IMG/VR virus record: IMGVR_UViG_3300020138_000016
Span: 1-25,943 of that record
Source of the DNA: a virus
Taxonomy: Duplodnaviria > Caudoviricetes
Direction: 5' to 3' (one strand)
DNA length: 25,943 nucleotides
Shown here: one piece after another, positions 1 through 23,760 of the stretch
Layout of the letters: every line of letters starts with the position of its first letter
How positions within the stretch are numbered: the first letter of the stretch is position 1
Notes under the pieces: model-generated
Seen by the model: the letters and a program-made list of their open reading frames with translations, nothing else
Database searches by the model: none
Told to the model about the DNA's origin: nothing
Position numbers and translations under genes: made by a program

Positions 1-42
1 CGGGTTAAAGTGGCGTCCCCACGGGGATTCGACCTTAACCCG
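1..42. other. Recombinase attachment (att) site: 42-bp imperfect palindrome around a central AC dinucleotide, containing a tRNA-Glu 3'-end fragment
   Basis: Left arm 1-20 (cgggttaaagtggcgtcccc) matches the reverse complement of right arm 23-42 (cgggttaaggtcgaatcccc) at 16/20. The minus strand of 11-32 reads TCGAATCCCCGTGGGGACGCCA, the T-arm/acceptor/CCA end typical of proteobacterial tRNA-Glu. It lies at the 3' end of a serine recombinase gene. Confidence 0.75.
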
Positions 43-1535
43 GCAGGGTCGCCGATGAGGCGGTTCGCGGCCAGGCGGTAGTGCACCTGGCAGGCCAGGG
101 TGTCGGGATCCAGCTCGACGCGCTCCAGCATGGTGAACAGGGCATGCTTGAGGCCCTCGCGGTCGGTTTCTTCCATTTCGGTGGACAGCGCCACCAGCAG
201 AGCGCGTACTTCGTGCTCGCTGACCTGGTGCCATAGCATCTGCTGTTGGTATTCCGTCTCACGGCTGGTCAGCTCTGCGGCAAGGTGTTCGCGCTGTTGT
301 TCGAGCTCGGCGACTTTGCGCATGAATGGCGCCGGTGTCTCCGCTTGGGCCGCCAGGTCCACGAGGCGGGATATCTGCTTGTTGGTCTCGGCGATGGTGC
401 TGCGGATGCCGACAGTGGGATCCTCGACGCCGGCGGTGGCGGCCGCTCGCGCAGCCTGCGTCAATGCCCGGATGAATGCGGGGCCCTGCAGATCCCGCAT
501 GACCTGGTCGACCACGGCCGATTCCAGGGCTATGGCGGGCACGTAGCGCATGCCGGCGCCGGTACGCTGCCATCGGTAGCTGCCGCGATCGCCGCTCCAT
601 CGCGTGCCGTCAGGCGATTGGAGCAACCCCGTGAGCAGGTACGCTGCACCTCGGTTTCGCACCCGATGGGGCGAGAACGCTTCCAGGCTGGCCAGGATGG
701 TGTCTGCCTGCGCCTGTGTGATCAGGGCGGGGTGCGTATCGCGCTGAATGACCCAGTCGCGGCGTGGCCGCCGTTTTTGGCCGCCCACGTAGGCACCGTC
801 CTTGCGCTCAGCGTGCACGTTCCAGACGGTATGGCCCGCATAGGTGAGCGCGTTCCATTCCAGGCCGATCAGAGAGGACCCGGAGAGCTTCAGGCCGGCT
901 TGCTTGGCGGCCGCGGTGCGCGAGACGCCTTCCGCGCGCAGGGCGAGGAATTGCCCCACGCTGCCGGCAAGCAACGGATCTGGCTCAAGCTTGCTTTTCG
1001 TGACCGCCTCGCCGTCGCGGACGGCGCCAGTGGTATGGTGCGCCAGTCGGTACCCGGTAGGCGCGCGGCCGCCGGCGCGGAAGCCGCTTTTGACGTTCTC
1101 GGCCATGCCGGCCAGGCCCTTGTCGCGGCTGGTGAGGCTGTGCCACTCATCCATGGCGCGCAGGATCGACTTGAGCAGCATCATGGTGATCGGATCGCTG
1201 TCCGGCACGCTGCGGTAGACGACCTCGATGCCGCGCTTGCGGCACTCGACTTCCTCGAAGATCACGGCGATATGCTGCCGCCTGGCGATGCGGGCGGTGT
1301 CCAGCACCAGCAGGGTGTTCCAGCCGCGCTTCGGGTTCCGGATGGCTTGCAGCAGGCGCTGGAAGCCCGGGCGGTGTTCGTCCTTACCCGACTCGACCGC
1401 GTCGCTGAACTCCGCGACGATCGTGATCCCTCGCGCCAGCGCCAGCTCTTTCAGCAATCGGCGCTGCGCCGCAGGGCTCATGTCGCTGCGGTCCTTGCTC
1501 GATCGCAGGTACAGGGCGGCTGTTTTCGTCGTCAT
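3..1535 (-). CDS. Large serine recombinase (phage integrase), 3'-partial: no stop codon before the window edge
   Basis: Manual translation from ATG 1535: MTTKTAALYLRSSKDRSDMSPAAQRR...DAVESGKDEHRPGFQRLL...VLDTARIARR...GGRAPTGY. This has the resolvase YxRxS catalytic motif, SG..RPGF, a DRxxR-like motif and the recombinase-domain PxGY. The frame continues to ...ERVELDPDTLACQVHYR... near the edge, over 510 codons. Confidence 0.93.
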   Translation of the reverse strand, partial: MTTKTAALYLRSSKDRSDMSPAAQRRLLKELALARGITIVAEFSDAVESGKDEHRPGFQRLLQAIRNPKRGWNTLLVLDTARIARRQHIAVIFEEVECRKRGIEVVYRSVPDSDPITMMLLKSILRAMDEWHSLTSRDKGLAGMAENVKSGFRAGGRAPTGYRLAHHTTGAVRDGEAVTKSKLEPDPLLAGSVGQFLALRAEGVSRTAAAKQAGLKLSGSSLIGLEWNALTYAGHTVWNVHAERKDGAYVGGQKRRPRRDWVIQRDTHPALITQAQADTILASLEAFSPHRVRNRGAAYLLTGLLQSPDGTRWSGDRGSYRWQRTGAGMRYVPAIALESAVVDQVMRDLQGPAFIRALTQAARAAATAGVEDPTVGIRSTIAETNKQISRLVDLAAQAETPAPFMRKVAELEQQREHLAAELTSRETEYQQQMLWHQVSEHEVRALLVALSTEMEETDREGLKHALFTMLERVELDPDTLACQVHYRLAANRLIGDPAGLRSNPRGDATLT

Positions 1536-1650
1536 TGCGGGCTTTCCTTTGGGCGCACAGGCGCAACAGCAGCGGCATCAAGCCTTCCACGGCGAGATCG
1601 AGATCGGGGGAATTCGCTGAGGTTACGACGATGGCGGGGTGCTTTTCCAT
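1384..1650 (-). CDS. Small hypothetical protein overlapping the integrase 5' end; possible recombination directionality factor. Alternative call: 41-aa ORF 1532-1657
   Basis: MEKHPAIVVTSANSPDLDLAVEGLMPLLLRL... has AGGA 10 nt upstream. The alternative ORF 1532-1657 has TGATG and ATGA overlaps on both sides. The sequence alone cannot decide between them. Confidence 0.35.
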   Translation of the reverse strand: MEKHPAIVVTSANSPDLDLAVEGLMPLLLRLCAQRKARNDDENSRPVPAIEQGPQRHEPCGAAPIAERAGAGARDHDRRGVQRRGRVG

Positions 1651-1656
1651 CCGCCA

Positions 1657-3549
1657 TCAATCCTTTGCGGCCAGTTCGGCCTGCAGCCATTCCGGCGGCG
1701 TGGCGCGGTGGAAGCGGCACGTTTGCCAGTAGAGGCGCGCGCGGGCCATGACCGACACGCGCGCAAATCGGGCGCCGATGCCTTTGGCCGCCTGCCTGGT
1801 ACGCACGTCGCCCGCCAGGCGCCAGTTGTTGACGGTGGCGGTGGATACGCCGGCGAGGCGGGCGGCGGCGGCCAGGTTGATCCAGGTCGACGGAAGCTCA
1901 CGCGGCGGGCGGGGTGCGCTCGTCGCGGCGCGCTTCAGCTTGGCCAGCATCGGCGCGGTGATGTAGAGCCGCCGCTGATCCCAGCGTGCGCGGGTGATGC
2001 GGATGGTGCCGTCCTTGATGCGGTCACGCACCCAGGCTTGTGGCCTGCCGATTTCGGCGGCCGCTTCGGGGATGGTATAGCCCTGCTGCGAGTTGAGCCG
2101 CTTGATGACGGCCTGCACGGTCGCGAGGGGGATCAGCCCTTCCTGGCGCCAGTGGACGCCATCGAGCAACGTGCGCAGGGCGGCCACGCTGACGCCGACC
2201 TTGGCAGCCGCCTGCTCGATGGTATAGCCGATGTCCTGGCGCAATTCCGCCACCTGCTGGCGCATCACGAGGCGCTTGCCGGCGGTGGCGCGGGCGTTCA
2301 CGCGCTGGTCGGCGATGAAGGCCTCGATCTCCGCGCGCGTGAAGTCGTACCAGCGGCCGGCGGTGCGAATGGAGATCCACGAGCCTTTGCCGCTGCCATC
2401 CGGGTGCTTCCGAGCGGCCCAGCGGGTGGCGTCGGTCTGGGTGATGCGATAGCTGCGGCCATGCGTGCTCGCGCGCAATGCGCCGCTTTGGATGGCGTCG
2501 ATGACCCGCTGGTAACTCTGCCGGGTTTGCCGGGCGACTTCCGCTGGGGTGAGGCCGGGTTTCCACACCAGCGTCAGGTGGCGCTTGGCGCCGTGAGCCA
2601 GGGGCGGATAGCGCTCGCAGTATTCGGCGAATGTTTTGGGTGCGCCGGCGGCGCCCCAGATGGTTTGGCAGGTTGCGCAGCTGGCGGGGTGCTTGCGGGC
2701 CACCCACCGCGCGTGGGAATGCTTGAGGTTGCCCAGCAAGGGCTTGCCGTGCCACGGCATGGGCCTACCGGCGTGGCGATCGGCGACGAGCTTGCGCGCC
2801 ACCTTGGGGTCGACGTACCAGGTGCCGTTCTTGCCGGTATGCACGCCAGGCTTGGCGGGGTTGCAGCGGATGGCCGTGGGGATGTAGCCGGCCTGGGCAA
2901 ACTCCGGCAGTTTGGCGTCGCTGCTGATGCCCAGCGGCTCGCGCAGGCTGGCCAGGTGGACGTAGCCGGGTGGGGCGATCGCGCGGGTGGATTTCCACCG
3001 CGCCCATTCCGCATGCGGGATGACGAAGAGGCGGCCGACGCGGTGGGTCTTGAGTCCCTTGGCGCGGATCGCGTTGCGCACGATTTCCACCGAGCCGATC
3101 TCGGCGGCGGCCTGCTGGATGGTGATGCCGCCGACCACGTCGGTGGCTTGCATACCCATGCGGTTGATGCGGATTTGCACCGATTGCTCGTTGCGCGCCG
3201 CGCCTTCATCGCCCGTAATGCGCTGCAGGCGATCCGTCAGGATGGCCGATATCTCCGGCTTGGCCAGGCGGCCGACCAAGCTGGCGAGCAGCTCGTCTTC
3301 CGGCGGCAGCCACTGGTAGGCGCCGGCGCCGCGGCGCAATGGGGCGGGCCAATCCACAGCGGCTGGTGGTCGGCCGTGCCAGCGTGCAAACAAGTCGGCG
3401 AATATCTCCACGTCCGATGCGCGCGCGCGGGCCGCCGAGCCGGCTGAGCGAGCTTTGCGCACGGCCGCGATGGGTTGGCCGACGATTGCTGCCAGGTAGT
3501 GCGCAGGGAAGCCGCCGCCGGCGCTGGCGACGAAGGCTTGCCAAGTCAT
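1657..3549 (-). CDS. Large DNA-binding protein with about 6-7 tandem excisionase/MerR-like HTH units
   Basis: Repeated units such as GITIQQAAAEIG..., GLTPAEVARQT..., GYTIEQAAAKVGVS..., GYTIPEAAAEIGR..., WINLAAAARLAGVSTATVNNW. ATG 3549 overlaps the upstream stop (ATGA); alternative start at 3555. Confidence 0.75.
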   Translation of the reverse strand: MTWQAFVASAGGGFPAHYLAAIVGQPIAAVRKARSAGSAARARASDVEIFADLFARWHGRPPAAVDWPAPLRRGAGAYQWLPPEDELLASLVGRLAKPEISAILTDRLQRITGDEGAARNEQSVQIRINRMGMQATDVVGGITIQQAAAEIGSVEIVRNAIRAKGLKTHRVGRLFVIPHAEWARWKSTRAIAPPGYVHLASLREPLGISSDAKLPEFAQAGYIPTAIRCNPAKPGVHTGKNGTWYVDPKVARKLVADRHAGRPMPWHGKPLLGNLKHSHARWVARKHPASCATCQTIWGAAGAPKTFAEYCERYPPLAHGAKRHLTLVWKPGLTPAEVARQTRQSYQRVIDAIQSGALRASTHGRSYRITQTDATRWAARKHPDGSGKGSWISIRTAGRWYDFTRAEIEAFIADQRVNARATAGKRLVMRQQVAELRQDIGYTIEQAAAKVGVSVAALRTLLDGVHWRQEGLIPLATVQAVIKRLNSQQGYTIPEAAAEIGRPQAWVRDRIKDGTIRITRARWDQRRLYITAPMLAKLKRAATSAPRPPRELPSTWINLAAAARLAGVSTATVNNWRLAGDVRTRQAAKGIGARFARVSVMARARLYWQTCRFHRATPPEWLQAELAAKD

Positions 3550-4496
3550 CGGCATTCGAGTTCGTCCTCCAGCGCGCGACGGCCGGACATGACTTGCTGC
3601 GGCGACAGGCCGGCGACGGTGGCCAGCAGGCTGACCACGGGGTCAGTAAGCATCTGCAGGCGCGGCGTGGCGATGTCGCGCATGGCGCGGTCCCACTGGC
3701 TGAACGTGGTGGGCAGGGCGGGCTTGATCCGCGGCGCCTCGAGCGCGACTTGCTTCATCGCGTCGGCCATCGGCAGGCGCACTTTCTCCACACCGCGCCG
3801 GCTGAAGCAGAAGAATTCGCCCGGGCCCAGCGCCGCGAGGGCGGCAAACTCGATCTTCGACGACCGGAACTGTGGTGCCAGCGCGGCCCACGCCGCGGGA
3901 TCCTCCTGGCAGCCGATCAGGCTGAGGTTCTTGTTCGCGAAGATGTGCCGGTGCAGCGAGCCGGTGAAGCTGGTCGCGGTCATGAACAGGTCCAGCGCGC
4001 GCTTGCGGCCGCGCTGGGCAATTTCGTTGACCAGGTCCGAGGCGACGCCCACGTCGTTCTTTCGCTTGCGGCTGGCGCTGAACACCTGGCCTTCGTCGAG
4101 CATGACGAACATGGGTTTGCGGTGTGTGTCTGCGGCCTCGAGGATGACCCGCCCGAAGGGAATGAATTCCGTGGCGTCCCGCGCCGAGACCACCACGATG
4201 TTGCGGTCGCGCTTTTCCAGCACGGCTTTCAGCTCGGCGGCATCGATGGACGGGCCGTACATCGATTCGATCTCGCCCTCGGGATCCACCAGCACGCTCA
4301 CCCATCCCTGGCTCGCAAGCTGCTCGCCGATCAGCAGGCCGGCGTTGGTCTTGCCGGCGCCGCTGGGCCCCACGGCCACGACGCGCAGGCCGGTGGTGGC
4401 GTAATCCGCCAACTCGATGAGCTGGCCGCCCAGGTCCAGGTGGGCTTCGGCCAATTCGGTGCGGCGGATGACGTGGCGGGAGGTGGTATCAGCCAT
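3546..4496 (-). CDS. P-loop ATPase, HerA/FtsK (DUF87)-like, 316 aa
   Basis: Walker A GPSGAGKT, LVDPEGE, Walker B MFVMLDEGQVF and the RGRKRAL arginine-finger motif of HerA/VirB4-like ATPases. GGAGG RBS before ATG 4496. Confidence 0.85.
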   Translation of the reverse strand: MADTTSRHVIRRTELAEAHLDLGGQLIELADYATTGLRVVAVGPSGAGKTNAGLLIGEQLASQGWVSVLVDPEGEIESMYGPSIDAAELKAVLEKRDRNIVVVSARDATEFIPFGRVILEAADTHRKPMFVMLDEGQVFSASRKRKNDVGVASDLVNEIAQRGRKRALDLFMTATSFTGSLHRHIFANKNLSLIGCQEDPAAWAALAPQFRSSKIEFAALAALGPGEFFCFSRRGVEKVRLPMADAMKQVALEAPRIKPALPTTFSQWDRAMRDIATPRLQMLTDPVVSLLATVAGLSPQQVMSGRRALEDELECR

Positions 4497-5013
4497 GGTT
4501 GGCCTCCCGCGCGCTGAGCACGATGTCCTTGAGGCGCAGCTGCTGCGCGGAGGAGAGCGCGAACACCACGGCGAAATCGTCAATGACCTGCGGCGTCACC
4601 TGTTCCAGCAGGCCGGCCCGACGTGCCTGCGCGAGGTATTTGCGCAGGTCCGACCAATCGGCGGCGTTGACGCCGCCGGCAGGCAACCCCTGGATTTCCG
4701 CGTGCAACTGGTCGAGGGTGTAGAGGTTGGCAGCGTCGCCAAGATCCGCCTGCAGGCGTTCGTTGAGCAGGGACAGCAGCTGCAGCGGCGTCATGTAGCC
4801 GTAGACCTTGCGGATAAGCGCCTTCTCGGCCGCGGTGAAATCGCGGGCGGCGCCCGCCGAGGCGCTGGACGTTGGCAGAGGGCCGAGGCGGCGGGCGGCA
4901 GGGTGCTGCCGGCAATCGCTACAGATGGCGCGCGCGAAGTCGTCGCGGGGGTGATCCTGCGAGAGGCGCGCGGTGCAGAGGCGGCACTTCACCAGGCCGG
5001 GTTGGGCGTTCAC
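4489..5013 (-). CDS. Hypothetical phage protein with an N-terminal CxxC...CxxC zinc finger, 174 aa
   Basis: GTG start overlaps the upstream stop (GTGA). CRLC...CSDC is followed by a helical domain DFTAAEKALIRKVYGY... Confidence 0.7.
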   Translation of the reverse strand: MNAQPGLVKCRLCTARLSQDHPRDDFARAICSDCRQHPAARRLGPLPTSSASAGAARDFTAAEKALIRKVYGYMTPLQLLSLLNERLQADLGDAANLYTLDQLHAEIQGLPAGGVNAADWSDLRKYLAQARRAGLLEQVTPQVIDDFAVVFALSSAQQLRLKDIVLSAREANHG

Positions 5014-5267
5014 CGACGCACCTCCACCAGCCTGGAAGCGCATTGCGGCAGGCCGCCAGCGACGATGATGTCGCCGTCGGCATCTACCGCGAAGTAGTCT
5101 TTGCCGGTATCCGGGTCGCGCCACTGGACGGCACGTGGATCATTCCAACCGGTGGCGCCAGGCGTTGGCACCAGCCTCGGGAGGATATCGCCAGGCTCCA
5201 CGTGCGGGCATTCGGGGCAGCAATCCCAGTCGCGCTCATGCGCGGCACCACAATTCAGGCAGGCCAT
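5010..5267 (-). CDS. Small Cys-rich hypothetical protein, 85 aa
   Basis: MACLNCGAAHERDWDCCPECP. TGATG and GTGA overlaps with its neighbours. Confidence 0.65.
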   Translation of the reverse strand: MACLNCGAAHERDWDCCPECPHVEPGDILPRLVPTPGATGWNDPRAVQWRDPDTGKDYFAVDADGDIIVAGGLPQCASRLVEVRR

Positions 5268-6427
5268 CAGATGGCCTCCGACGCACGTTGACGGTGTTGC
5301 GCGCTGCCTGCGAATGCGTAGTGGTCGAGGCTGGCTACGAAACGCAGCGCCATCGCGGCGGTCTGGATGGCTTCCGTGCGGACGTCGCCTGTTGTGCTTT
5401 TGTGCGGCTCGTATGTCGCCTGCATCACCGCTTTGGTCAGCTCGCCGAACTCCTCGCCGAGCACGCCAATGGCGTGCAACGGGTCGGTGGGCCAGGTCGG
5501 GAACTTGGCGGTTGCTGTTTCGATTTCCGCCATGACCGCGGGCAGGATGGCATCCACTGCAGTGGCTGGGCCGAGCGCCTGCATGGACAACAGGACCGCG
5601 CGTACGCCTTCGCGAATCGAGGCGTCCAGTACCTCGACCGAAGGGTTACCCTCGGGATGCGTCTCCATCGCCATGCGGGACACGCAGGCAACCTTGTATG
5701 CGTGCACCGCGTGATCCAGGACCGCAGCCGGCGGCGCCGCGCGATCGGGCGGGATGTGCTGCCAGGTCGGCTCGATCGCTTCGCTGTTGTCTTCCGCGCC
5801 CAGCCACTGAGCGCCTTCCTCCGGATACTCGGTGCAGTAGACGTACAGGCCGGCCGGAGCCGTCGGGTTGTCTGGCCAGTGGTTGGCGGGAAAGTACTCC
5901 ACGGTCATGTCGCCATTCGAGCCACCGAAGAACGACAACAGCGTTTCGGCCTGGCCCAGCGTGAACTGCATGGACGTGCGGGGAGCATTCGCAGTTGTCG
6001 GCGCCCTGGAGGCCGTGATGGCCTCACCGCGCTGATGCAGGAACATGCAGAAGTTGGCCACGTCAAGGGGATCACCTTTTTCGACGTGCGCGCGCAACAT
6101 GTCCGACAGTCGCTGATGCATGCCGGGCTCATTGTTGTTCCAGCCGCCGCGACCCTTCGCGCGCGCAGCGGCAAGCTTTTGTTTCATCGACGCCGCAAAC
6201 CGGTCGACGGCATCGTCGTGGGGTAGAACGGGCTCGCCCATGAAGGTCGGACCGTTGGCCTCCTTCGCGAGGTCGCCGACAAGGCGATCGATGGTGTTTT
6301 CGGCCAGGCCTAATTCGTGCGACACCAGTTCGATGTCGGCGCGCCGGGCATCGAGACCTTGCTGGTCATCCAGGTAAATGTCATGCCTTAGGCGATGGAT
6401 GGCATTGTTGAGCGCAGTGGTATTCAT
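5267..6427 (-). CDS. Mosaic phage early protein with a C-terminal MazG-like (all-alpha NTP pyrophosphatase) domain, 386 aa
   Basis: ATG 6427 overlaps the ParB-like stop (ATGA). C-terminus VLGEEFGELTKAV...VRTEAIQTAAMALRF follows the EExxE...ExxD/Q pattern. An internal module reads MKQKLAAARAKGRGGW...KGDPLDVANFCMFLHQRG. Confidence 0.7.
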   Translation of the reverse strand: MNTTALNNAIHRLRHDIYLDDQQGLDARRADIELVSHELGLAENTIDRLVGDLAKEANGPTFMGEPVLPHDDAVDRFAASMKQKLAAARAKGRGGWNNNEPGMHQRLSDMLRAHVEKGDPLDVANFCMFLHQRGEAITASRAPTTANAPRTSMQFTLGQAETLLSFFGGSNGDMTVEYFPANHWPDNPTAPAGLYVYCTEYPEEGAQWLGAEDNSEAIEPTWQHIPPDRAAPPAAVLDHAVHAYKVACVSRMAMETHPEGNPSVEVLDASIREGVRAVLLSMQALGPATAVDAILPAVMAEIETATAKFPTWPTDPLHAIGVLGEEFGELTKAVMQATYEPHKSTTGDVRTEAIQTAAMALRFVASLDHYAFAGSAQHRQRASEAI

Positions 6428-8256
6428 TTCGCACGCCCCTTCGCGGCTTTTTTCTCGGGCGCGTTCTTGGCTTTTCGGGCGGCCGGTTTTTTCGTTACCG
6501 GCTTCTTTGCCGCCTTGGTCGGCGCTGCCGATTTCTTCGGCGGTGCAGCCTTCTTTGCCTTCGGCGCCGACCGCGGGCGCAGCGGTGGCGGCAACCATCC
6601 CTCCGGGAAGTGCTTGAGCGCAGCGCCCGGTAAATTCGCCTTCGCCACGTTCCGCAGCAGTGCCAATTCGACCTCGGGCGCGCCGGCGCCTTTCGCCAGG
6701 TCCAGGATGGCGGCCTTGGGCAGTGTGGCCAGCCATTCCTCGGTGGGTGACCACGCCGCCGACAAGTCGGTTTGCGTCATGTCGGCGAGATCGGCGACCG
6801 TTTCCTTCTTGGAGCCGGCTGATACTTCGACGCCATCGACCTCCCGCGCGACAAGGAAGGCGAGGAGCTTCTCGACGGTCGCTTCGTCTTGCCGGAGGAT
6901 CCACGCACGCGCGTCGCTGCGGTTCCTTGGCAGCAGTGCTTTCCATTCCTTCAGCTGATCATCCATCCGGTTTGCGGCCGGCGCGCGGCCGCTGATCTTT
7001 GCGATGTTGCCATGCATGCGGCCGCCAGCTTCGCGGCTGATGTGGACGAAGGTACGCGAGCCGACCCAACCGTCGTAGAACACGGAATCGGCAAGTTCGG
7101 CGGCCAGCAGCGCGATCGCCACTTTCGGCTTCGTGGACAGATCGAGCGCGATGATGTCGCTAGCCTCGGCCTGAAGCCGTTGCACGGCGGCGAACGACAG
7201 TTCGCCGGGCTTGTGTGCGGGCTTATCCTTGCCGCCGGATACCTTCTCGCCGGTGGCGGCGGTCATCGCCTTGCGGTCTGCTGGCCGTACCAGGCCGCGC
7301 TTGATCTCGGCCTGGCCGTTGTAGCCCAGCGACACGATGGCGCCGGCGTGCGCTTTCGCTTCGGCCGACCACGTCTCCTTGCTTCCTTTGTACTCGCTGG
7401 GCGCATTGCCGAAACCATCGCGGTGTTGGTAGTACTCGAACTTCAGGCGCGGCTCGACCCAAAGCCAACCCTCTTTGCGGATTTTCTCGGCAGTGCGTTC
7501 GAGTTTCTCCAGCGCGAGCTTCTCGGCCAGTTCGGCGTCCATCAGGAAGGCGTCGGCATCGGTGCCGAACATGTCGCGACGCACCTGTCCACCGGCTTTT
7601 TCGTAGGCGGCGAGGCCCACGAATTTTGCGAGCGATGAATCGGCCGCCAGCTCCTGTTGGGTGATCACTTCGCGCAGGCGCCGCGGCTCGCGTTGCCATT
7701 CGTTCTTTGCAGCTTTCCAGACCCGCAACTGCACGGCCTGGTCGTCGGTGAGCGCCAGCGCCATCATCTGCTCGAGGGTGGCATTGCCGGCGCGGTAGTC
7801 GGCCAGGATGTCGGGGGCGACGTTGGCCAGCTTGAGACGCTGGCGCACGAACAGCTCGGACTGGCCGAAGCGTGCGGCGATCTCGGACACGGGTAGCCCG
7901 TCGTCGACAAGCCTCGCGAAGGCGTCGCATTCGTCGGCGGGGTGCATTGCGTGGCGCATGACGTTTTCGGCGAGGCTGGCCTCACGGCTCTGGCCATCCT
8001 CGATCACGCGGCAGGGAATGCCGGCCGCCAGCGTTTCGGGCAGCGTGCCAGCCTCCTGGAGGGCCTGCAGCGCCTTGAGGCGGCGGCCGCCGGCGACGAC
8101 GGCGTAGCCGCTGTCGTTGCGCGTTACCGTGAGGTTGTGGATGAGGCCGTGGTGCACGATCGATGCGGCGAGGGACTCGACCGATGCGCCGCCGGTCTTG
8201 CGCACGTTGAGGTATGTCGCATGCAGCTGCGACAGCGGGATGGCTTGGATGCTCAT
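6424..8256 (-). CDS. ParB/RepB/Spo0J-family protein with a Lys/Ala/Pro-rich histone H1-like tail, 610 aa
   Basis: NVRKT...LAASIVHHGLIHNLTV...VVAGGRRLKAL...SLAENVMRHAMHPADEC is the ParB N-domain with arginine patch. HTH VSEIAARFGQSELFVRQRLKL. AGGAG RBS and ATGA overlap with the RT stop. Confidence 0.88.
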   Translation of the reverse strand: MSIQAIPLSQLHATYLNVRKTGGASVESLAASIVHHGLIHNLTVTRNDSGYAVVAGGRRLKALQALQEAGTLPETLAAGIPCRVIEDGQSREASLAENVMRHAMHPADECDAFARLVDDGLPVSEIAARFGQSELFVRQRLKLANVAPDILADYRAGNATLEQMMALALTDDQAVQLRVWKAAKNEWQREPRRLREVITQQELAADSSLAKFVGLAAYEKAGGQVRRDMFGTDADAFLMDAELAEKLALEKLERTAEKIRKEGWLWVEPRLKFEYYQHRDGFGNAPSEYKGSKETWSAEAKAHAGAIVSLGYNGQAEIKRGLVRPADRKAMTAATGEKVSGGKDKPAHKPGELSFAAVQRLQAEASDIIALDLSTKPKVAIALLAAELADSVFYDGWVGSRTFVHISREAGGRMHGNIAKISGRAPAANRMDDQLKEWKALLPRNRSDARAWILRQDEATVEKLLAFLVAREVDGVEVSAGSKKETVADLADMTQTDLSAAWSPTEEWLATLPKAAILDLAKGAGAPEVELALLRNVAKANLPGAALKHFPEGWLPPPLRPRSAPKAKKAAPPKKSAAPTKAAKKPVTKKPAARKAKNAPEKKAAKGRAK

Positions 8257-9614
8257 CGCGTGAGATCGCTCCTGATGGTGATGGGCCTGCCATGCAGGCG
8301 ATGGGAAAAGCGCTGCGGTTGCGCAGCGGCGGTAATCCAGGGAAAGCGTTGCCGCAGGCGATGGGCCAGTCGGCGGGTGGCGGCGTGCTTCAGGTGGCCG
8401 GCATAGCTGGCCAGCACGGTGCGGATGTGGTCGAAATCGGCGGGCGTGCCGTGCATGGTGTCGCCGCGCACGTGGGCGGATTCCCACTCGGCCAGCGCCT
8501 GGCGAAGGTGAGTGACGACGCGCCGGCGCGCCAGCAGATGCGTGGGGTAGATGATGTAGCCGAGGAAGTCGAGGCCCGCGGTCAGTGGCCGCAGCTTTAC
8601 GTCGGCTTTCAGCCGCAGGTCGAGCTCGGCGGCGAGGAATACCTCGATTTGCTGCTGCCAACGCACCAACTGCTCGCGGTCGTGGTGGAACAGGACGAAG
8701 TCATCCACATAGCGCAGGTAGCGCTTCGCGCGCAGCGTGTGCTTGACGAACTGGTCCAGCTTGTCCAGGTAGACGTTGGCCAGGAACTGGCTGGACAGGT
8801 TGCCGATGGGCAGGCCGCAGCGCGGTCGCGCGTTGCAAAGGCGCTTGTGCGTTGGCACCAAGGCCAGTTGTGCCGGCGTGGCGCGTTCGCGTACGCCGGC
8901 CTGTAACGGGTTGCCTCGCAACAGCGCGTGCGTCGTCGCGACGATCGTCGGCGACAACCCGGCGCGCAGCAGCACCGGCTTCATGGTGCGCCACAATTTA
9001 TCGCGGCGGATGGAGATGAAGAAGTTGGCGATGTCGAGCTGCAGGTAATAGCCGCTGCCCTGGCCGGAGTAGACCTGGCGCACGCACGCATGGGCGTAGC
9101 GGACGGCGGCGTGGCTGCCCTTGCTCTTGCGGTTGGCGTAGCTGTGCGCGTAGAAGCGCGGCTCGTAGACCGCCTCCAGCGGCGGCACGATCAGGTGATG
9201 CACCACGCGATCGCGGAAGGGCGGGGCGTGGATCTCGCGTGCCTTGGGGCGCGTGGCCACGAATGTGGTGGTGGGGCCAGGTGACCACGTGGCCGTGTTG
9301 AGCTCGGCCTGCAGATTGAGCAGGCCATCGATGAAGTGTGCGTCGAAAGCCAGCTTGTCGAAACTGGGCTTCTTGCCGCGGCGAGCGGCCATGTAGGCAT
9401 CGTAGAGAGGGCGCAGCTGGACGCCCTCGGCACCCTGAAACTCACGGGCACGCCGGCACGCGAGACCGAACCCGCTGTTGTTGCGGTGGTTGTTGTTCAC
9501 GTTGCCGTTGTGGAGATTGACGTTGAAGGCGGACGCCGAAGACCACGGCGCCGCGTCCCCGCGCACTTGCGACTCTGCCGCACAGGCCTTTTTCGGATAG
9601 CGCGGCGTCGTCAT
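8253..9614 (-). CDS. DGR reverse transcriptase, 453 aa (N-terminal codons include the template repeat)
   Basis: Motifs PKAREIHAPPFRDRVVHH, YLQLDIANFFISI, GLPIGNLSSQFLANVYLDKLDQFVK (DGR-type SQ motif), YLRYVDDFV, GLDFLGY. No maturase or endonuclease domain. ATG 9614 overlaps the avd stop (ATGA). Confidence 0.95.
   Translation of the reverse strand: MTTPRYPKKACAAESQVRGDAAPWSSASAFNVNLHNGNVNNNHRNNSGFGLACRRAREFQGAEGVQLRPLYDAYMAARRGKKPSFDKLAFDAHFIDGLLNLQAELNTATWSPGPTTTFVATRPKAREIHAPPFRDRVVHHLIVPPLEAVYEPRFYAHSYANRKSKGSHAAVRYAHACVRQVYSGQGSGYYLQLDIANFFISIRRDKLWRTMKPVLLRAGLSPTIVATTHALLRGNPLQAGVRERATPAQLALVPTHKRLCNARPRCGLPIGNLSSQFLANVYLDKLDQFVKHTLRAKRYLRYVDDFVLFHHDREQLVRWQQQIEVFLAAELDLRLKADVKLRPLTAGLDFLGYIIYPTHLLARRRVVTHLRQALAEWESAHVRGDTMHGTPADFDHIRTVLASYAGHLKHAATRRLAHRLRQRFPWITAAAQPQRFSHRLHGRPITIRSDLTR
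9444..9551 (-). repeat. DGR template repeat (TR), 108 nt
   Basis: GCG CCG TGG TCT TCG GCG TCC GCC TTC AAC GTC AAT CTC CAC AAC GGC AAC GTG AAC AAC AAC CAC CGC AAC AAC AGC GGG TTC GGT CTC GCG TGC CGG CGT GCC CGT. It has 21 adenines, 18 of them in nine AAY codons, and aligns without gaps to both VRs. Confidence 0.96.
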
Positions 9615-10054
9615 GCGTTGGCCCTCGATCGGGCGGCGCGGGTACTCAGTTTCTTGCCACGCTGTGCGGAGGCCTCGGCCTGCACATTCCGGGCATTGGG
9701 GTGCGTTTCCAGGCTTCGCTTCCAGCCACCGGCCTGCTTGCCGATTTCGCAGGCGCGCACCATGAGCCGCTCGAATTGCGCGAACGATTGGTAGGCGCGA
9801 ACTAGCTTGCAAACCTGCAGGCGATCCTTCAGGTCGTCGACGGCATCGACCAACTTGTCGGCATAGAACCGCCGCTGGTCCTGGCGCTGCCACGTACGGG
9901 TCGCACAGCGCATCACTGTTTCGGCCTGGAGCCGCAGCGCGGCGCCCGACTGATAGCGGTGGTAGCGCGGGAACTTGCGCACAACCTGTTCGATGTCCGC
10001 GCATAGATTGCGCGCGGCATCGACGATAGGCGGCGGCTGGAAGCGTGAGGCCAT
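9611..10054 (-). CDS. avd: DGR accessory variability determinant (Avd-like four-helix bundle), 147 aa
   Basis: Basic helical protein with VRKFPRYHRYQSGAALR and EIGKQAGGWKR motifs, in the canonical position between target and TR. Confidence 0.9.
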   Translation of the reverse strand: MASRFQPPPIVDAARNLCADIEQVVRKFPRYHRYQSGAALRLQAETVMRCATRTWQRQDQRRFYADKLVDAVDDLKDRLQVCKLVRAYQSFAQFERLMVRACEIGKQAGGWKRSLETHPNARNVQAEASAQRGKKLSTRAARSRANA

Positions 10055-10073
10055 TTCAATCAATCCAATGGCC
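10049..10073 (-). other. Hairpin just downstream of VR1 (candidate DGR target-recognition stem-loop)
   Basis: Minus strand GGCCATT-GGATTGATTGA-AATGGCC starts 2 nt after the target 1 stop. The 3' arm includes the avd ATG. Confidence 0.5.
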
Positions 10074-10075
10074 GA

Positions 10076-10696
10076 TTACTGACGGGCACGCCGGCACGCG
10101 AGACCGAACCCGCTGTAGCTGCGGTGGAAGCTGTGCACGAGGCCGTAGCGGAGACTGACGTCGAAGGCGGACGCCGAAGACCACGGCGCTACCGTGCTGG
10201 TCCAGTACCAGTCGTCGGTCGGCAGGTCGGGGAACAGGTTCTTGTCCACGGCCGGTTCGTGGTAGCAGCGGTCGATGACGTGCCTCTCGTAGACCGTGTC
10301 CGGCGCCAGTTGCCAGTCGTTGTAGCCGAGCAGCTGGAGGGTTTTGCCGGCCTCTTCGGTGGCCTGCTGGCTCTTGAATGGACGGCCATTCGCCGCGAGC
10401 GACTTGACCGCCACTATCCAGCCGGTGTCGGGAAACAACACGGCTACATGATCGGTGCGGGGATCCGAAGCGGGCACCTCGTTGCCATCCGCCAGGATCT
10501 TCCGTGGCGCGGCGTCGTCTTTCGCCGCGGAGCGATCGGCGACCGCGATGGCGCTTGCCAACGGCGCCGCGAGGAAGCCAGCAAGGCCGCTGAGCGGGTT
10601 GGAATCGAGCCGGACGATCAGGTCGCCGGCCACGTGGATGAAGGGTGTTGCTGCTTTTGCTTCGTGCAATGGCAGCGTATGGTTGGCTTCGCTCAC
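10076..10696 (-). CDS. DGR target protein 1, DUF1566/Lcl-like C-type-lectin fold, 206 aa
   Basis: AAAGGAG RBS and GTG start overlapping the upstream stop. Motifs LLGYNDWQL...PAVDKNLFPD...WYWTST; VR1 at the C-terminus. Confidence 0.9.
   Translation of the reverse strand: MSEANHTLPLHEAKAATPFIHVAGDLIVRLDSNPLSGLAGFLAAPLASAIAVADRSAAKDDAAPRKILADGNEVPASDPRTDHVAVLFPDTGWIVAVKSLAANGRPFKSQQATEEAGKTLQLLGYNDWQLAPDTVYERHVIDRCYHEPAVDKNLFPDLPTDDWYWTSTVAPWSSASAFDVSLRYGLVHSFHRSYSGFGLACRRARQ
10082..10189 (-). repeat. DGR variable repeat VR1
   Basis: Ungapped 108-nt match to TR with 12 mismatches, all at TR adenines (e.g. AAC>GAC, AAT>AGT, AAC>CTC, AAC>TTC). Confidence 0.96.
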
Positions 10697-10771
10697 TGGG
10701 TATCTCCTTTGGCGTGGTTGAAACGGCGGATGTGCTCCAGCAGTTCGGTGGGGCACTGGGAATCGGAGAGG

Positions 10772-11185
10772 TCATGCAGGAACCGTTCGGCCTGCGCCAG
10801 CAGACTCCTGGCATCGCGTAACAAGCGTTTGGCGCGGCGCAGGGCGCGCGGGCAATCCGGTGTTATGCCGCAAAAGCTGGCCCAGTCGTCGCCGCAATTT
10901 TTTTTCATCCTCGCGTGCTGGCATTGGCATCCAGCAAATCGGCGTACAGGCCAGCGCTTTCCAGCGCACCGGCAAATCGCAATCACCACCCTCTCCGGTG
11001 TAGCGCGACCCACAGGCCGCCCACCAACCAATGCTGACTTCCGCTTTCTGGCCCATCCGTGGGTCGCCACCGCCCATGTTTGCGTACATTGCCGGCAGCA
11101 CGTTGTAGTGCTCGCCATTCGGTGTTTCGGTCACCAGCACGACTGTTCCGTCGCGCGGCGCGGTTGTCATCGGTTGCCAGCTCAT
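10772..11185 (-). CDS. Cassette-borne DUF551-like phage protein, 137 aa as integrated (may also be read from ATG 11281 as an in-frame fusion)
   Basis: MSWQPMTTAPRDGTVVLV...PICWMPMP matches the WQPxxTAPxDG...WMPLP pattern of phage DUF551-like proteins. GGAGAG RBS. Confidence 0.75.
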   Translation of the reverse strand: MSWQPMTTAPRDGTVVLVTETPNGEHYNVLPAMYANMGGGDPRMGQKAEVSIGWWAACGSRYTGEGGDCDLPVRWKALACTPICWMPMPAREDEKKLRRRLGQLLRHNTGLPARPAPRQTLVTRCQESAGAGRTVPA

Positions 11186-11256
11186 GTCGCTCTCCGGGGT
11201 TGCGGCATAACAATTCAATCCAGCCGACCAGCTCCGCTGGCGGCTGATTTCAGGTG
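10863..11256 (+). mobile_element. Integron-type gene cassette (394 bp) integrated at a secondary G/TT site
   Basis: Begins at core site G/TTATGC (10862-10868) and ends in an attC. The 13-bp segments 10861-10873 and 11200-11212 are perfect inverted repeats. GGTGTT occurs at both junctions. Excision restores an ORF. Confidence 0.82.
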
Positions 11257-11262
11257 TTGGCT
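11205..11262 (+). other. attC recombination site (59-base element), 58 bp
   Basis: R'' GCATAAC, spacer AATTC, L'' AATC(C)AGCCG, (A), CCAGC-TCC-GCTGG, L' CGGCTGATT, spacer TCAGGT, R' GTTGGCT. Two extrahelical bases (G and T on the bottom strand) and 5/6-nt spacers, as in canonical attC sites. Confidence 0.87.
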
Positions 11263-11277
11263 TGAGCGGCTTGATGC

Positions 11278-11556
11278 TCATGAGCGGCTGCACCGGAATC
11301 GTCGGCTGGCCTTGATCTGCCGGGCTGCCTTCAGCCCTTCCTGGGTGAGCGTTAACGCGCTCGGAAAGGCCGGATTGTCGAACGCGAACAGGCCGTCGCG
11401 CTCCAACTGGTTGGCACAGCGCCTGGTCACCGCGACCGGCTGGGCAGGGCGGCTGGAAACGAATCCTTCGCGCGTGCGGCGCAAGGTATGCGCAGGTGTT
11501 TCCAGCGCGGCCATGAGTGCGGCGCTGACGGCCGGCGTATAGGCGGTGGCGATCAT
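11278..11556 (-). CDS. Hypothetical protein, possibly winged-helix, 92 aa
   Basis: MIATAYTPAVSAALMAAL...VTRRCANQLERDGL...LTLTQEGLKAA. ATGA overlaps at both ends. Confidence 0.7.
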   Translation of the reverse strand: MIATAYTPAVSAALMAALETPAHTLRRTREGFVSSRPAQPVAVTRRCANQLERDGLFAFDNPAFPSALTLTQEGLKAARQIKASRRFRCSRS

Positions 11557-11771
11557 GCAGCACCACCCAGGGCGCGCTCGACGATGCGGCTGAGGTAATC
11601 GGGATCGTGCGCGGCGAGCCACAACGATGCGACGAAAAACGACAGCCATATGACGGTTGCCACAACGATCTGGCGGCGCGACAGCGGCGCTTGGGATATG
11701 GGGCTCTTGCGCTCCCGGCCATCGTCCGGGCGACGGAGCAATGCGTGGCGGTGAAGCGATTGGCCGGCCAT
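11553..11771 (-). CDS. Small membrane protein, 72 aa
   Basis: Hydrophobic segment IVVATVIWLSFFVASLWLAA. TGATG and ATGA coupling. Confidence 0.65.
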   Translation of the reverse strand: MAGQSLHRHALLRRPDDGRERKSPISQAPLSRRQIVVATVIWLSFFVASLWLAAHDPDYLSRIVERALGGAA

Positions 11772-12073
11772 CAGACCCACCCCGCCCAATGCGCGAGCAA
11801 ACCAAGCGCCGCGACGATGACCAGTGGCGCGAGCGCGCCAGCCAGGTCCCGCCACCCCGAATGTTTTTGCGGCGCGCGGGCCGGCCCGATGCTGCCGATG
11901 GCACGCATGGGCGCCTTCGCATTGGCCCGAAATTCGCTGCGCAAGGTGCGGAGCTGCCGATACCGTGATTCCCTGGCGGCCTCGGTGGCGCGCTTGGCCG
12001 CAAGCAACCGCTCCAGACGCGCCTGCACCTGCCGGTCAGTCAGCTGCTGGTTTTCGGTGCGAGGTGCCGTCAT
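11771..12073 (-). CDS. Hypothetical protein with a C-terminal membrane anchor, 100 aa
   Basis: MTAPRTENQQ...LAGALAPLVIVAALGLLAHWAGWV. GAGG RBS. Confidence 0.65.
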   Translation of the reverse strand: MTAPRTENQQLTDRQVQARLERLLAAKRATEAARESRYRQLRTLRSEFRANAKAPMRAIGSIGPARAPQKHSGWRDLAGALAPLVIVAALGLLAHWAGWV

Positions 12074-12075
12074 GA

Positions 12076-12333
12076 CTACGCCTCGCTTGCCATGCGGCGG
12101 CTTTCGAACCACTGGAAGATCACGGTGATCGTGCCTTCTGCGTAGTTGCCAAGCTGCTTGCTGTGGCACCGCTGCTCGTATTCGGAGCCGTCGGCGCGCA
12201 GCAGCGTTTCGATCTTGTCGGGCTTCCACTCGTGGACCATTTCGGGGAGCGCGATGCGATCGAATTCTTCTTTCGTCCTCGGCCCCGCAAAAACGGTGGT
12301 TTCCGAAAGCACTGAGCAAAACGATGACGTCAT
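12076..12333 (-). CDS. Hypothetical protein, 85 aa
   Basis: GGAGA RBS before ATG 12333; fills the gap within the leftward operon. Confidence 0.6.
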   Translation of the reverse strand: MTSSFCSVLSETTVFAGPRTKEEFDRIALPEMVHEWKPDKIETLLRADGSEYEQRCHSKQLGNYAEGTITVIFQWFESRRMASEA

Positions 12334-12363
12334 GGCGATGGTCTCCGTCAGCAAATGGGCCAA

Positions 12364-12819
12364 TTACTGACGGGCACGCCGGCACGCGAGACCGAACCCG
12401 CTGAGGCTGCGGCGGCCGTAGCCCACGTAGCCGAGGCGGAGATCGACGAGGAAGGCGGACGCCGAAGACCACGGCACTACCGTGCTGGTCCAGAACCAGT
12501 CGTCGGCAGGCAGGTCGGGGAAGAGGTTGGTGTCGACGGCGGGGTCGTAGCGGTCGTGCGTCAGCACGTGGCGCAGCCAGACCTCATCGAGCGGGGCGTT
12601 GATCCAGTCCTGGTGGCCCAGCAGGTCCAATGCCTTGGCGGCCGCGTCCACGGCATCGGCATTGGCCAGCGGCTCGTACTCTTCGCCGGCGAGCGCCTTG
12701 ACCGCCACCATCCAGCCGGTGTCGGGAAACAGCACGGCCACGTGGTCGGTGCGCGGATCGCTGGCGGGCACCTCGGTGCCATCGGCCAGGATTTTCAGCG
12801 GGGTGGTGCTGGTGTTCAT
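12364..12819 (-). CDS. DGR target protein 2, DUF1566/Lcl-like, 151 aa; first gene of the leftward early operon
   Basis: Paralog of target 1 (shares KILADGxEVPASDPRTDHVAVLFPDTGW and PAVDxNLFPDLPxDDWxWTSTV). VR2 at the C-terminus; GGAGAG RBS. Confidence 0.92.
   Translation of the reverse strand: MNTSTTPLKILADGTEVPASDPRTDHVAVLFPDTGWMVAVKALAGEEYEPLANADAVDAAAKALDLLGHQDWINAPLDEVWLRHVLTHDRYDPAVDTNLFPDLPADDWFWTSTVVPWSSASAFLVDLRLGYVGYGRRSLSGFGLACRRARQ
12370..12475 (-). repeat. DGR variable repeat VR2
   Basis: Ungapped 106-nt match to TR with 16 mismatches, all at TR adenines. The first non-A mismatch (12476) marks the 5' boundary. Confidence 0.96.
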
Positions 12820-12959
12820 GCGGCGCTCTCCGGTGAGTGGAGGGCGCCGGCGGGTCGTTGGCTAGGCCTGCAAGGGTTCAGGCCTTCGCGCTACCGGACA
12901 GGGGTTCCGGCGGGTGGCGACCCGCCGGTCGCCCGCCCCGGATGGCCGGGGCGGGAAAG

Positions 12960-13003
12960 ATTGCAAACTATCTTGCAAAAATTGTCAACAAGTTTTTTTG
13001 CAT
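12960..13003 (-). promoter_or_regulatory. Leftward early promoter (pL-like) with two 18-bp operators
   Basis: TTGACA-N17-TGCAAT on the minus strand (12988 to 12960). Operators TTGCAAACTATCTTGCAA (12961-12978) and CAACAAGTTTTTTTGCAT (12986-13003) match those between cI and cro. Confidence 0.8.
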
Positions 13004-13075
13004 TGCTAGATGCCGGTGTCGGATTGCCTATACTGTTTGCCGGGGTTTGGCGGGTATAGAAGGGGGGTACGTGCT

Positions 13076-13429
13076 ATGGCTTCAGGGGCATCCGTTGGAC
13101 GGCGCGGAGTCGCGCTCACTATTGGTTTCGGAATCTGCTCGGCGCTCGGACTCATGTGCGATGCACATGCAAGCGATGGCCGCATGGAAGGGCTGTCGCT
13201 TTGCCAGGAGGCGATCAAACGCGTGGCGACCAATCCCTCTTCGGCGCACGTGCCCTATACCAAGGATTACGGTTCAGCAACGGAGCATTATTTCGCGTGG
13301 CCGAAAGGGTCAGGACTGACCATGATGAATGGATTTGGCGCCAACATCGACGTGAGCGCGGCCTGCACCACCACTGGTGATGGCGCGCGGATTACGAGCC
13401 TGAGCGTCAACGGCAAAACAATCCTGTGA
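13076..13429 (+). CDS. Putative exported accessory protein in the immunity region, 117 aa
   Basis: Signal-peptide-like N-terminus (RRGVALTIGFGICSALGLMCDAHA/S) and AGGGGG RBS. Convergent with cI. Confidence 0.7.
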   Translation: MASGASVGRRGVALTIGFGICSALGLMCDAHASDGRMEGLSLCQEAIKRVATNPSSAHVPYTKDYGSATEHYFAWPKGSGLTMMNGFGANIDVSAACTTTGDGARITSLSVNGKTIL

Positions 13430-13436
13430 GGCCGCG

Positions 13437-13865
13437 CTAGCTTCGAGGTTTGCCACGCGGCGTGCGGGACTCGCCCGCCGCATCCATCATGACCAACACG
13501 GCCTTTCGCACTTCATTGCCGCAATCACGGTAAAGGTCGATCAGTCGACGCTCATCAGCTGCCATAGGGAAGCCATATTCCCCGGCCGGATCTCGGACTG
13601 CAAACGCTGGGCGCGAGTCAGTGGCATGCGGGCCATAGACGGGCATGCCTGGCACCCACGCACGGAGCTCCTCGACCGTCTTTCCGAACGCGCAGGCGAG
13701 CTCGATGAGATAGCGAGGGCGTGTATTCGGCTTGGCCTCGAGCTGTTGCAGGTGCTGGTGCTGTACCTTCGGAGCTCCGCAACGTCTGACGTTGGCGGCG
13801 AGTTCCTGCAACGTCCATCCGTTGGCCGCCCGAAGAGCCGCTATGTTTTCGCCTAGCGGTTTCAT
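13437..13865 (-). CDS. cI: CI-like XRE-family repressor lacking an S24 peptidase domain, 142 aa
   Basis: HTH LGENIAALRAANGWTLQELAA...HLQQLE...LIELACAFGKTVEEL. Divergent from cro. Short C-terminus DERRLIDLYR. Confidence 0.85.
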   Translation of the reverse strand: MKPLGENIAALRAANGWTLQELAANVRRCGAPKVQHQHLQQLEAKPNTRPRYLIELACAFGKTVEELRAWVPGMPVYGPHATDSRPAFAVRDPAGEYGFPMAADERRLIDLYRDCGNEVRKAVLVMMDAAGESRTPRGKPRS

Positions 13866-13929
13866 GCAAAACATTTTGCATTGTTGACTGACAAAAATGC
13901 TTGCATTACCTTTGCAAGAAATCTTGCAA
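13864..13929. promoter_or_regulatory. OR-like operator triplet and rightward promoter
   Basis: 18-bp sites ATGCAAAACATTTTGCAT (13864-13881), TGACAAAAATGCTTGCAT (13889-13906) and TTGCAAGAAATCTTGCAA (13912-13929). Candidate pR TTGACT-N17-TACCTT (13884-13912). Confidence 0.82.
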
Positions 13930-13939
13930 GGTTCAGGCA

Positions 13940-14167
13940 ATGTCTGCGCTCGAGAAGGCCATCACAATTTGCGGCTCGCAGAGCGAGCTCGCCCGTCGGA
14001 TAGGCGGCAAGGTCCGCACTGGGCATATCCACTATTGGCTCAAGAACCGGGTGCCGGCTGATCGGTGCGGGGACATTGAGACAGCCACGGAAGGCAAAGT
14101 CACCCGCCACGACCTCCGCCCCGACGTCTTCGGCGAGCCCAACCCCGCCACCGCGAGGGCCGGCTGA
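13940..14167 (+). CDS. cro: Cro-like (YdaS-family) regulator, 75 aa
   Basis: MSALEKAITICGSQSELARRIG...VPADRCGDIETATEGKVTRHDLRPDVFG is the typical YdaS/Cro pattern. Confidence 0.9.
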   Translation: MSALEKAITICGSQSELARRIGGKVRTGHIHYWLKNRVPADRCGDIETATEGKVTRHDLRPDVFGEPNPATARAG

Positions 14168-14168
14168 T

Positions 14169-14426
14169 ATGGCCATCATCAGGAGCGATCTCATGCGTGG
14201 ATTGATCGAACGTGCGCGCGTCGCCGTGCGCGACTGGCTTACCGCGCCTACAGCAGCTGAACGCGACGCCGTGCGGGCAATGCTCAGGAGACGGAGGGCG
14301 TTGCATCCAACAGACCTTCCACCAGTCGCGGAAGTGCCTGGTTCGACGCCAGTTCCGGCGACGGCGAATCCAGCATCTCCTGCAGCGTCGCCCGAATGTC
14401 CTGCAGATACGAGGAATCCTGGATGA
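14169..14426 (+). CDS. Hypothetical protein, overlapping an opposite-strand gene
   Basis: ATG immediately after the cro stop; N-terminus ...LIERARVAVRDWLTAP looks coding. Confidence 0.4.
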   Translation: MAIIRSDLMRGLIERARVAVRDWLTAPTAAERDAVRAMLRRRRALHPTDLPPVAEVPGSTPVPATANPASPAASPECPADTRNPG

Positions 14427-14511
14427 GCACCGGCAGGATGTGTTCCACCAAATGTTCGAGTGCCGCGAGTCGCTCGGCCGCGTTCTCCAGCGTGACGGTT
14501 GTCGGTTCCAT
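14284..14511 (-). CDS. Reverse-oriented accessory protein, 75 aa
   Basis: Acidic helical sequence with a GGAGA RBS inside repeat copy A. Confidence 0.65.
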   Translation of the reverse strand: MEPTTVTLENAAERLAALEHLVEHILPVLIQDSSYLQDIRATLQEMLDSPSPELASNQALPRLVEGLLDATPSVS

Positions 14512-23709: not shown

Positions 23710-23760
23710 TCGCTGCGGTATTACCAGAGGCCCGCGGCCGCCAGAAAAAATGACCGCGCA

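Follow-up and report, generated by a model that had tools for sequence, protein, structure and literature searches.

A diversity-generating retroelement with two small targets in the predicted early operon of a lambdoid phage

The DNA analysed here (hereafter the window) spans the 25,943 nucleotides of the virus record IMGVR_UViG_3300020138_000016 from IMG/VR, and it carries a diversity-generating retroelement (DGR) that is virtually certain to be real, with a template repeat (TR), two variable repeats (VR1 and VR2), the accessory gene avd and a reverse transcriptase (RT) with a YVDD motif, all present and intact (Table 1). Its two targets are small proteins encoded in the predicted leftward early operon of a lambdoid temperate phage, and such an arrangement is usual across a broad DGR lineage instead of being peculiar to this genome. 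The targets likely act inside the infected cell and outside the virion, and we tentatively propose, a little short of even confidence, that they are hypervariable binders of variable host proteins, most likely defence or takeover targets.

Table 1. Positions of the retroelement, its targets and the surrounding regulatory features in the window.
Feature	Position	Strand	Evidence
Template repeat, 21 adenines, in the 5' end of the RT reading frame	9444..9551	-	repeat alignment
VR1, 12 adenine-only changes	10082..10189	-	alignment to TR
VR2, 16 adenine-only changes	12370..12475	-	alignment to TR
avd accessory gene, 147 aa, pI 10.6	9611..10054	-	phrog_3206 E 3.8e-15
DGR reverse transcriptase, 453 aa, YVDD at residue 302	8253..9614	-	Pfam RVT_1 E 2.8e-17; phrog_1423 E 3.2e-90
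Target 2, 151 aa, stand-alone C-type-lectin-fold protein, first operon gene	12364..12819	-	Pfam, structure model
Target 1, 206 aa, lectin-fold domain behind a predicted disordered N-terminus of 58 aa	10076..10696	-	Pfam, disorder prediction
Predicted pL: TTGACA (12988-12983), 17 nt, TGCAAT (12965-12960)	12960..12988	-	sigma70 match
Leader RNA of the leftward operon, conserved, structured, hairpin over the ribosome-binding site at its end	12820..12955	-	z -5.9
OR with two predicted operators, perfect palindromes TGCAA-N6-TTGCA at 13865-13880 and 13913-13928	13865..13928	.	palindrome search
cI-like repressor, helix-turn-helix (HTH), 142 aa	13437..13865	-	Pfam HTH_3 E 1.6e-4; weak PHROG repressor matches; divergent from cro
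cro-like gene, start codon approximate	13928..14167	+	Pfam YdaS/P22_Cro; phrog_35 E 7.9e-20
Remaining leftward operon: ParB-like, unknowns, ATPase, multi-HTH/excisionase-like, serine integrase	3..8256	-	Pfam/PHROG matches

The Retroelement and Its Repeats

Aligned to TR over 108 positions, VR1 shows 12 mismatches, and VR2 shows 16 over 106; all of them (12/12 and 16/16) lie opposite a TR adenine, and the two substitution patterns are unlike each other, as an earlier note made from the letters of this DNA had stated. Its count of 21 TR adenines in 12 codons was also recovered: in the target frame, the adenine-bearing codons specify nine Asn, two His and one Ser, the adenine of the Ser codon being unaltered in both VRs. 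Its figure of 4^21 variants, on the other hand, exaggerates the usable diversity, because the outcomes at AAC codons are strongly biased in the VRs of the family (see below).

TR lies within the first ~60 codons of the RT gene, and the open reading frames (ORFs) of RT and avd are both intact, the scores of avd with Pfam bAvd and NCBIfam DivGenRetAVD being below cut-off. The 22-nt constant part of the repeat occurs exactly three times in the window (chance 0.01), with no fourth copy before the window ends in the portal gene. Both VRs are followed by CAGTAAT and TR by GAGTTTC, a distinction kept in relatives that may mark the sites for initiation of mutagenic homing (putative IMH vs. IMH*). The hairpins found 3' of the VRs are weak and do not match (z -0.96 for VR1 and -2.2, with a different stem, for VR2, vs. 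-3.2 for Bordetella phage BPP-1). The nearest phage relatives of the RT, where checked, also carry TR/VR pairs.

In a public sequencing run (X1), a contig covering positions 10089-11681 at a depth of 7.6 has 14 differences from the window. Twelve of these are listed, and all 12 fall at TR adenines of VR1, two of them reverting to adenine. We rejected an assembly swap with VR2 or TR as the source of this alternative allele; only two of the sites match the letter of VR2. Five neighbouring contigs of the same run, which extend over 8200-14200 and include VR2, show no difference from the window, while a second run (X2) covers neither VR. Homing thus appears to be recent, since an otherwise identical phage has a VR1 differing at 12 listed TR-adenine sites: judging from these contigs, a genome identical elsewhere re-homed VR1, whether X1 is the source sample of the window or another one. 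Adenine-specific variation, for which the earlier note had suggested deep sequencing, is therefore already visible between near-identical genomes.

A Predicted Early Operon, Conserved in Related Loci

The window covers the left half of the genome of a lambdoid temperate phage, running from a serine integrase through the leftward operon, cI/cro, cII and the primase and terminase genes to the portal gene. The host of this phage probably belongs to Xanthomonadales, because named homologues of the targets come from Rhodanobacter, Stenotrophomonas and Luteimonas. The minus strand carries target 2, then five or six small ORFs, target 1, avd and the RT gene with TR inside, and from target 2 to the gene preceding the integrase most junctions overlap by 1-10 nt, as in a tightly coupled operon. 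The 16-bp palindrome TGCAA-N6-TTGCA is found three times in 26 kb (chance 0.02), i.e., twice between cI and cro and once (12962-12977) overlapping the predicted pL, ~140 nt ahead of target 2, and nowhere else in the window; the same three sites are present in a close relative (L004). In 58 of 77 related leaders, the best sigma70 match precedes the leader anchor by 24-26 nt, and 46 of the 77 reach a score of at least 9/12, vs. 2.6 in shuffles. Moreover, a terminator scan revealed no minus-strand terminator between pL and the RT gene. Since an operator lies over the promoter, a sigma70 match lies at the same distance in most related leaders, the junctions overlap and no terminator intervenes, a single CI-repressed transcript is the simplest reading, and we predict with high confidence that the DGR operon is under pL/CI control. 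The leftward early location proposed in the earlier note is borne out in that target 2 stands right behind a predicted repressor-covered promoter.

To place the element among its relatives, 116 loci fetched by target or RT queries were reduced to 88 non-redundant ones (including the record of the window), of which 67 contain both an RT and a target. Their genes were labelled by clustering, with PHROG scans of the representatives of 92 among the 148 largest clusters. As the gene caller missed some true genes, including the cI of the window, the marker counts should be read as minima. Markers of the opposite arm (cro, cII, O, P, primase, Q or terminase) lie upstream on the opposite strand in 56/67 loci and on the same strand in none, so that the early-left placement is conserved, cI being on the DGR strand in 36/67 and xis/int downstream in 41/67. 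Among 76 further same-strand neighbours, none has a virion gene as its best match; one has a lower-ranked partial tail-fibre match and one is an ATPase matching a terminase family. The 67 loci mostly have two VRs (47 loci), with three in 11 and one in eight, the last locus having been missed by our script although it carries two VRs. In these VRs (n = 135), mismatches affect 1915/3060 TR adenines vs. 38/11,512 other positions, the latter count being a lower bound because our counter lets adenines match anything and halts at any other mismatch. Regarding further VRs, for which the earlier note had advised a search, there is none in the window beyond VR1 and VR2, and none outside the early region in any of 10 whole related records, six of them at least 90% complete.

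The layout also occurs in cultured phages, 13 of which were hand-picked among the 40 matches listed of the 138 records hit by the RT. Six of them (Magia, E192a, QDWS, Haboob, LPPA56 and Cruim01) have two or three VRs in ORFs of 118-220 aa, and their DGRs sit among early, recombination or integrase genes. The other seven have one VR in an ORF of 364-770 aa, adjoining annotated virion genes in 6/7 (the unannotated Wae15 was assigned to this large-target group by size and kinship). In a 26-row RT tree, 19 early elements fall on one side of a branch with a support of 98/95, and the six early, small-target elements of cultured phages are separate from the seven large-target ones. Because this tree is midpoint-rooted and both BPP-1 and Bise form long branches, it shows a split and not a proven single origin.

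The Two Target Proteins

Target 2 is modelled as a single C-type-lectin (CLec) fold with a pLDDT of 95 and the VR at its C-terminus, which in fold comparisons is closest to the C-terminal domain of Lcl (Z 12.5), followed by Bd2740 (10.0), TvpA (8.5) and Mtd (8.2). The lectin domain of target 1 is 67% identical to target 2, and both match Pfam Lcl_C/DUF1566 (PF07603) at 31.3 bits, under the gathering score of 34.9, which is a weak match (E 2.8e-7), the VR overlapping the DUF1566 motif in the short target. The earlier note had regarded both targets as stand-alone DUF1566-like domains; this describes target 2, the fold of which was modelled, but not target 1, with its additional disordered N-terminus. 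That they are small and unrelated to fibres stands, as neither has a fibre or anchor domain. Residues 1-58 of target 1, predicted to be disordered, include an Ala/Leu-rich stretch that has the highest 19-residue hydropathy (1.86) among 163 family members, three of which exceed 1.6 in this crude screen, yet a membrane segment is unlikely, because the stretch is not conserved in the family alignment. These 163 targets are 111-234 aa long with a median pI of 5.0, and none has a lipobox or a twin-arginine (Tat) motif.

The ESM Atlas yielded only Lcl_C/DUF1566 clusters, the matches of Foldseek among viral models were DUF1566 proteins and a scatter of virion proteins with E-values too weak to be informative, and tblastn of target 2 against annotated phages gave no match. 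The libraries scanned contain no anti-defence family matching the targets. Within the family, a quick tree keeps the short, the long and the first-gene targets apart as persistent clades (19 changes, against 62.5 after shuffling), which suggests that the targets have divided roles; the long ones share a short N-terminal beta-strand-like motif.

At AAC codons of family VRs (n = 1220), Tyr accounts for 22%, Gly for 20% and Ser for 16%, a composition that resembles antibody paratopes. The codons obtained also depend on neighbouring positions, since CTC (105 observed vs. 20 expected) and TAC (243 vs. 143) are in excess, while TGC (11 vs. 112), CGC (2 vs. 47) and ATC (3 vs. 40) are depleted, a pair bias that looks biochemical in origin. 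Finally, the template of the close relative L004 (L004:10638-10749) is eroded to only seven adenines. The VR of its first-gene target fits this eroded template, with three changes that are all at adenines, whereas its avd-adjacent VR has 11 non-adenine mismatches to it. The pattern of mismatches suggests that mutagenised cDNA, or else a VR, replaced the TR of L004 and that the remote target may have been re-homed afterwards.

Proposed Function and Alternatives

Because the targets are encoded in a predicted early operon and not among tail genes, they likely bind something variable inside the infected cell. Under CI repression of the operon, neither they nor the DGR machinery would be made until infection or induction, and the ligands that they meet would be cytoplasmic, since they lack export and fibre domains. 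Briefly, CI bound to the palindrome over pL would keep the targets, avd, the TR RNA and the RT silent in the lysogen. Upon infection or induction, one long transcript would deliver target 2 first, then target 1 and an Avd-RT-TR complex. The latter would copy TR with errors at adenines, the resulting cDNA homing into either VR, and the progeny would carry new VR alleles to be tried early in the next infection. In lambda, the leftward operon (N, cIII, gam, ral) holds host-takeover and anti-defence genes. The ligand is the weakest step of the proposal, since it is drawn by analogy with that operon; provided that the targets do act inside the cell and outside the virion, host defence proteins or regulators are nevertheless reasonably likely ligands. 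The prediction of cytoplasmic CLec targets of DGRs in bacterial conflict systems also speaks for intracellular binders (PMC10907252). In a bolder form, which we regard as possible but doubtful, a distinct lineage of temperate-phage DGRs would maintain an evolving, antibody-like intracellular library against the defence sensors and effectors of the next host, small soluble binders being made first after DNA entry and re-randomised in every lytic round.

Several observations weigh against the proposal of intracellular host-protein binders in a CI-controlled operon. All characterised phage DGR targets in the literature surveyed are receptor-binding virion proteins, and the window is devoid of tail genes, so our VR search in it covers no late tail region. 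No family in the PADLOC and NCBIfam libraries matches the targets, and Tyr/Gly/Ser enrichment had to be rejected as a sign of selection for protein ligands, such richness at VRs being largely intrinsic to DGR RTs (PMC12875486). Concerning placement, no divergent marker is seen in 11/67 loci (seven too short, four with none seen), nor xis/int downstream in 26/67 (nine too short, 17 with none seen). The -10 element of pL is weak and a generic promoter scan gave no promoter, the scanner having missed pL because this element has no A at its second position; a separate internal promoter may serve avd-TR-RT, and Magia has an annotated terminator directly before its avd-adjacent targets. As for recent homing, the evidence from X1 is one low-depth contig, two of the 14 differences of which are not listed, and the run may be the source sample of the window itself.

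Of the alternatives, the least unlikely would keep the early binders but direct them at the repressors, anti-repressors or replication proteins of other mobile elements, thereby tuning phage-phage competition or the choice between lysis and lysogeny. The same gene anatomy fits, target 2 occupies the position that the first regulator has in lambda, and the immunity regions of the family are mosaic, with several cI/cro/cII clusters that would make up a variable set of ligands. However, many relatives have no first-gene target at all, another gene following the leader in 59 of 89 cases.

Slightly less probable again is a place in the virion for the targets, as accessories (a decoration, a fibre-tip cap or an injected protein) that are encoded among early genes and broaden the host range in the manner of Mtd. 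BPP-1 and most viral targets set a precedent for such a role (PMC8144416), a change of host range is what the Magia paper proposes (PMC7883833), the nearest solved folds (Lcl and Bd2740) are surface adhesin domains, and the N-terminal motif of the long targets could dock on a partner. Its difficulty lies in the early-left placement without structural neighbours, in proteins that have no fibre or anchor domain and are much shorter than the targets of structural-region DGRs (111-234 vs. 364-770 aa), and in the separate RT lineage.

Expression in the lysogen, through read-through from the cI gene or an internal promoter, would turn the targets into defence sensors or superinfection-exclusion factors; cI does lie upstream on the same strand and an immunity hypothesis for DGRs is in print (PMC10053308; PMC10907252). 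We nonetheless hold this to be improbable, because the operator covers the promoter directly before target 2, a convergent gene separates cI from pL, a PADLOC scan found neither an effector domain nor a noteworthy defence-system neighbour of the targets, and the operon continues to excisionase-like and integrase genes. Finally, the cassette is very improbably a passenger in which the targets keep mutating with nothing currently selectable: the number of targets varies from one to three and one close relative (L004) has an eroded template, but ORFs are intact and distinct paralogue clades are kept across dozens of mosaic phages.

Comparison with Known Elements

Mutagenic retrohoming itself is standard chemistry, established for BPP-1 (PMC5758913). 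The window shares with this phage (mtd-avd-TR-brt) the order target-avd-TR-RT, the adenine-only changes between TR and VR and a C-terminal VR in a lectin fold, though the two RTs are only 29% identical. It differs in having two small early-operon targets where BPP-1 has a single 381-aa tail target among tail genes, a TR inside the RT frame instead of upstream of brt, and weak, non-matching hairpins instead of a strong GC hairpin after the VR. The tail receptor-binding target in a structural module that typifies BPP-1 was not found, the placement being early-left without structural neighbours.

The element class as such is already catalogued, and the early-operon, small-target layout is a conserved variant of it. 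By description, CLec2/category d of Wu 2018 (PMC5758913; Rhodanobacter thiooxydans LCS2, Stenotrophomonas sp. SKA14) has the same short DUF1566-only targets, the same arrangement of target gene, avd, TR and RT plus one non-adjacent target, and no GC-rich stem-loop, weak DUF1566 matches being usual for the class; unlike our analysis, the part of that paper available proposes neither a placement in prophage early operons nor an intracellular function. Burkholderia phage Magia (PMC7883833) and Pseudomonas phages Haboob, LPPA56 and Cruim01 are similar in that their DGRs, with two or three targets of 118-220 aa, are surrounded by early or recombination genes, lie between the repressor and the integrase wherever these two are annotated, and belong to a sister RT lineage. 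Their RTs are just 37-42% identical to that of the window, however, and their targets barely match the family profile (one match, E 0.002). The Magia announcement names two short targets and proposes adaptation or a change of host range (PMC7883833), whereas we found three VRs in this genome (L118), the third of which (8242-8332, in gene 46) the announcement does not name.

In multicellular bacteria, the predicted antigen sensors of PMC10907252 likewise have CLec targets that are predicted to be cytoplasmic, a short one often accompanying a long one, but these are cellular, of the CLec type of formylglycine-generating enzyme (FGE), and fused or adjacent to STAND or vWA-MoxR effectors, of which none is found here. 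According to Roux 2020/2021, viral DGR targets are mostly structural, with unannotated ones guessed to be so too, and clade 3 mixes Proteobacteria and Bacteroidetes, while Dahlman 2025 places second VRs near counter-defence genes in gut prophages. Benler 2018, PMC10743442, PMC11661182 and a Bacteroides preprint were also surveyed, and no paper found in our search, which most subscription journals fell outside of, states an early-operon placement or an intracellular role for this DGR class.

What is new here is the operator and promoter evidence, the turnover of VR1 alleles, the RT split including cultured phages, the leader RNA and the template erosion. If our proposal is true, a widespread lineage that diversifies early, probably cytoplasmic binders extends the function of DGRs to the inside of the infected cell, and the antibody-like library, should it exist, would amount to adaptive counter-defence by programmed hypermutation. 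The lineage would also offer a testable route to the roles of unannotated viral DGR targets: with Magia, Haboob, LPPA56 and Cruim01, cultured phages of this layout are at hand in which targets can be deleted, used in pull-downs and looked for in virions by proteomics. In addition, a stable 150-aa scaffold with ~12 randomised residues is a candidate intracellular binder library.

Leader RNA and Other Features of the Window

The leader of ~135 nt after pL is present in 89 viral loci (L122-L210). The pair types of its 5' hairpin vary; next come a long helix around two hairpins and a hairpin covering the ribosome-binding site, the 5' arm of which can pair upstream instead. The long helix enclosing two hairpins recurs in 76 of 79 unique leaders, its core being fixed by the search pattern, and the covariation counts are not phylogenetically corrected. 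Rfam returned only an irrelevant sub-threshold match. The leader precedes a DGR target in 18/89 loci and was rejected as a part of the DGR, because a different gene follows it in 59/89. It is a candidate translational switch or, by analogy, a candidate put-like antiterminator.

Elsewhere in the window, the serine integrase (3-1535) runs off the contig end, while in L004 the same multi-HTH gene is followed by a tyrosine integrase. The convergent gene between cI and pL (13010-13429, plus strand) encodes 139 aa with a hydrophobic segment and cysteines; it has no family match, is also present in L004 and L076, and is possibly a lysogen-expressed exclusion or moron gene. Two 64-nt direct repeats, 81% identical (14506-14569 and 15001-15064), precede two small leftward ORFs between cro and cII. 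Finally, an insert in the late region (23236-24488, minus strand) carries a DUF4160 and DUF2442/HTH pair, which we take to be toxin-antitoxin-like, with two TGCAACCATTGCA repeats upstream of the pair, and a 157-aa protein without assignment.

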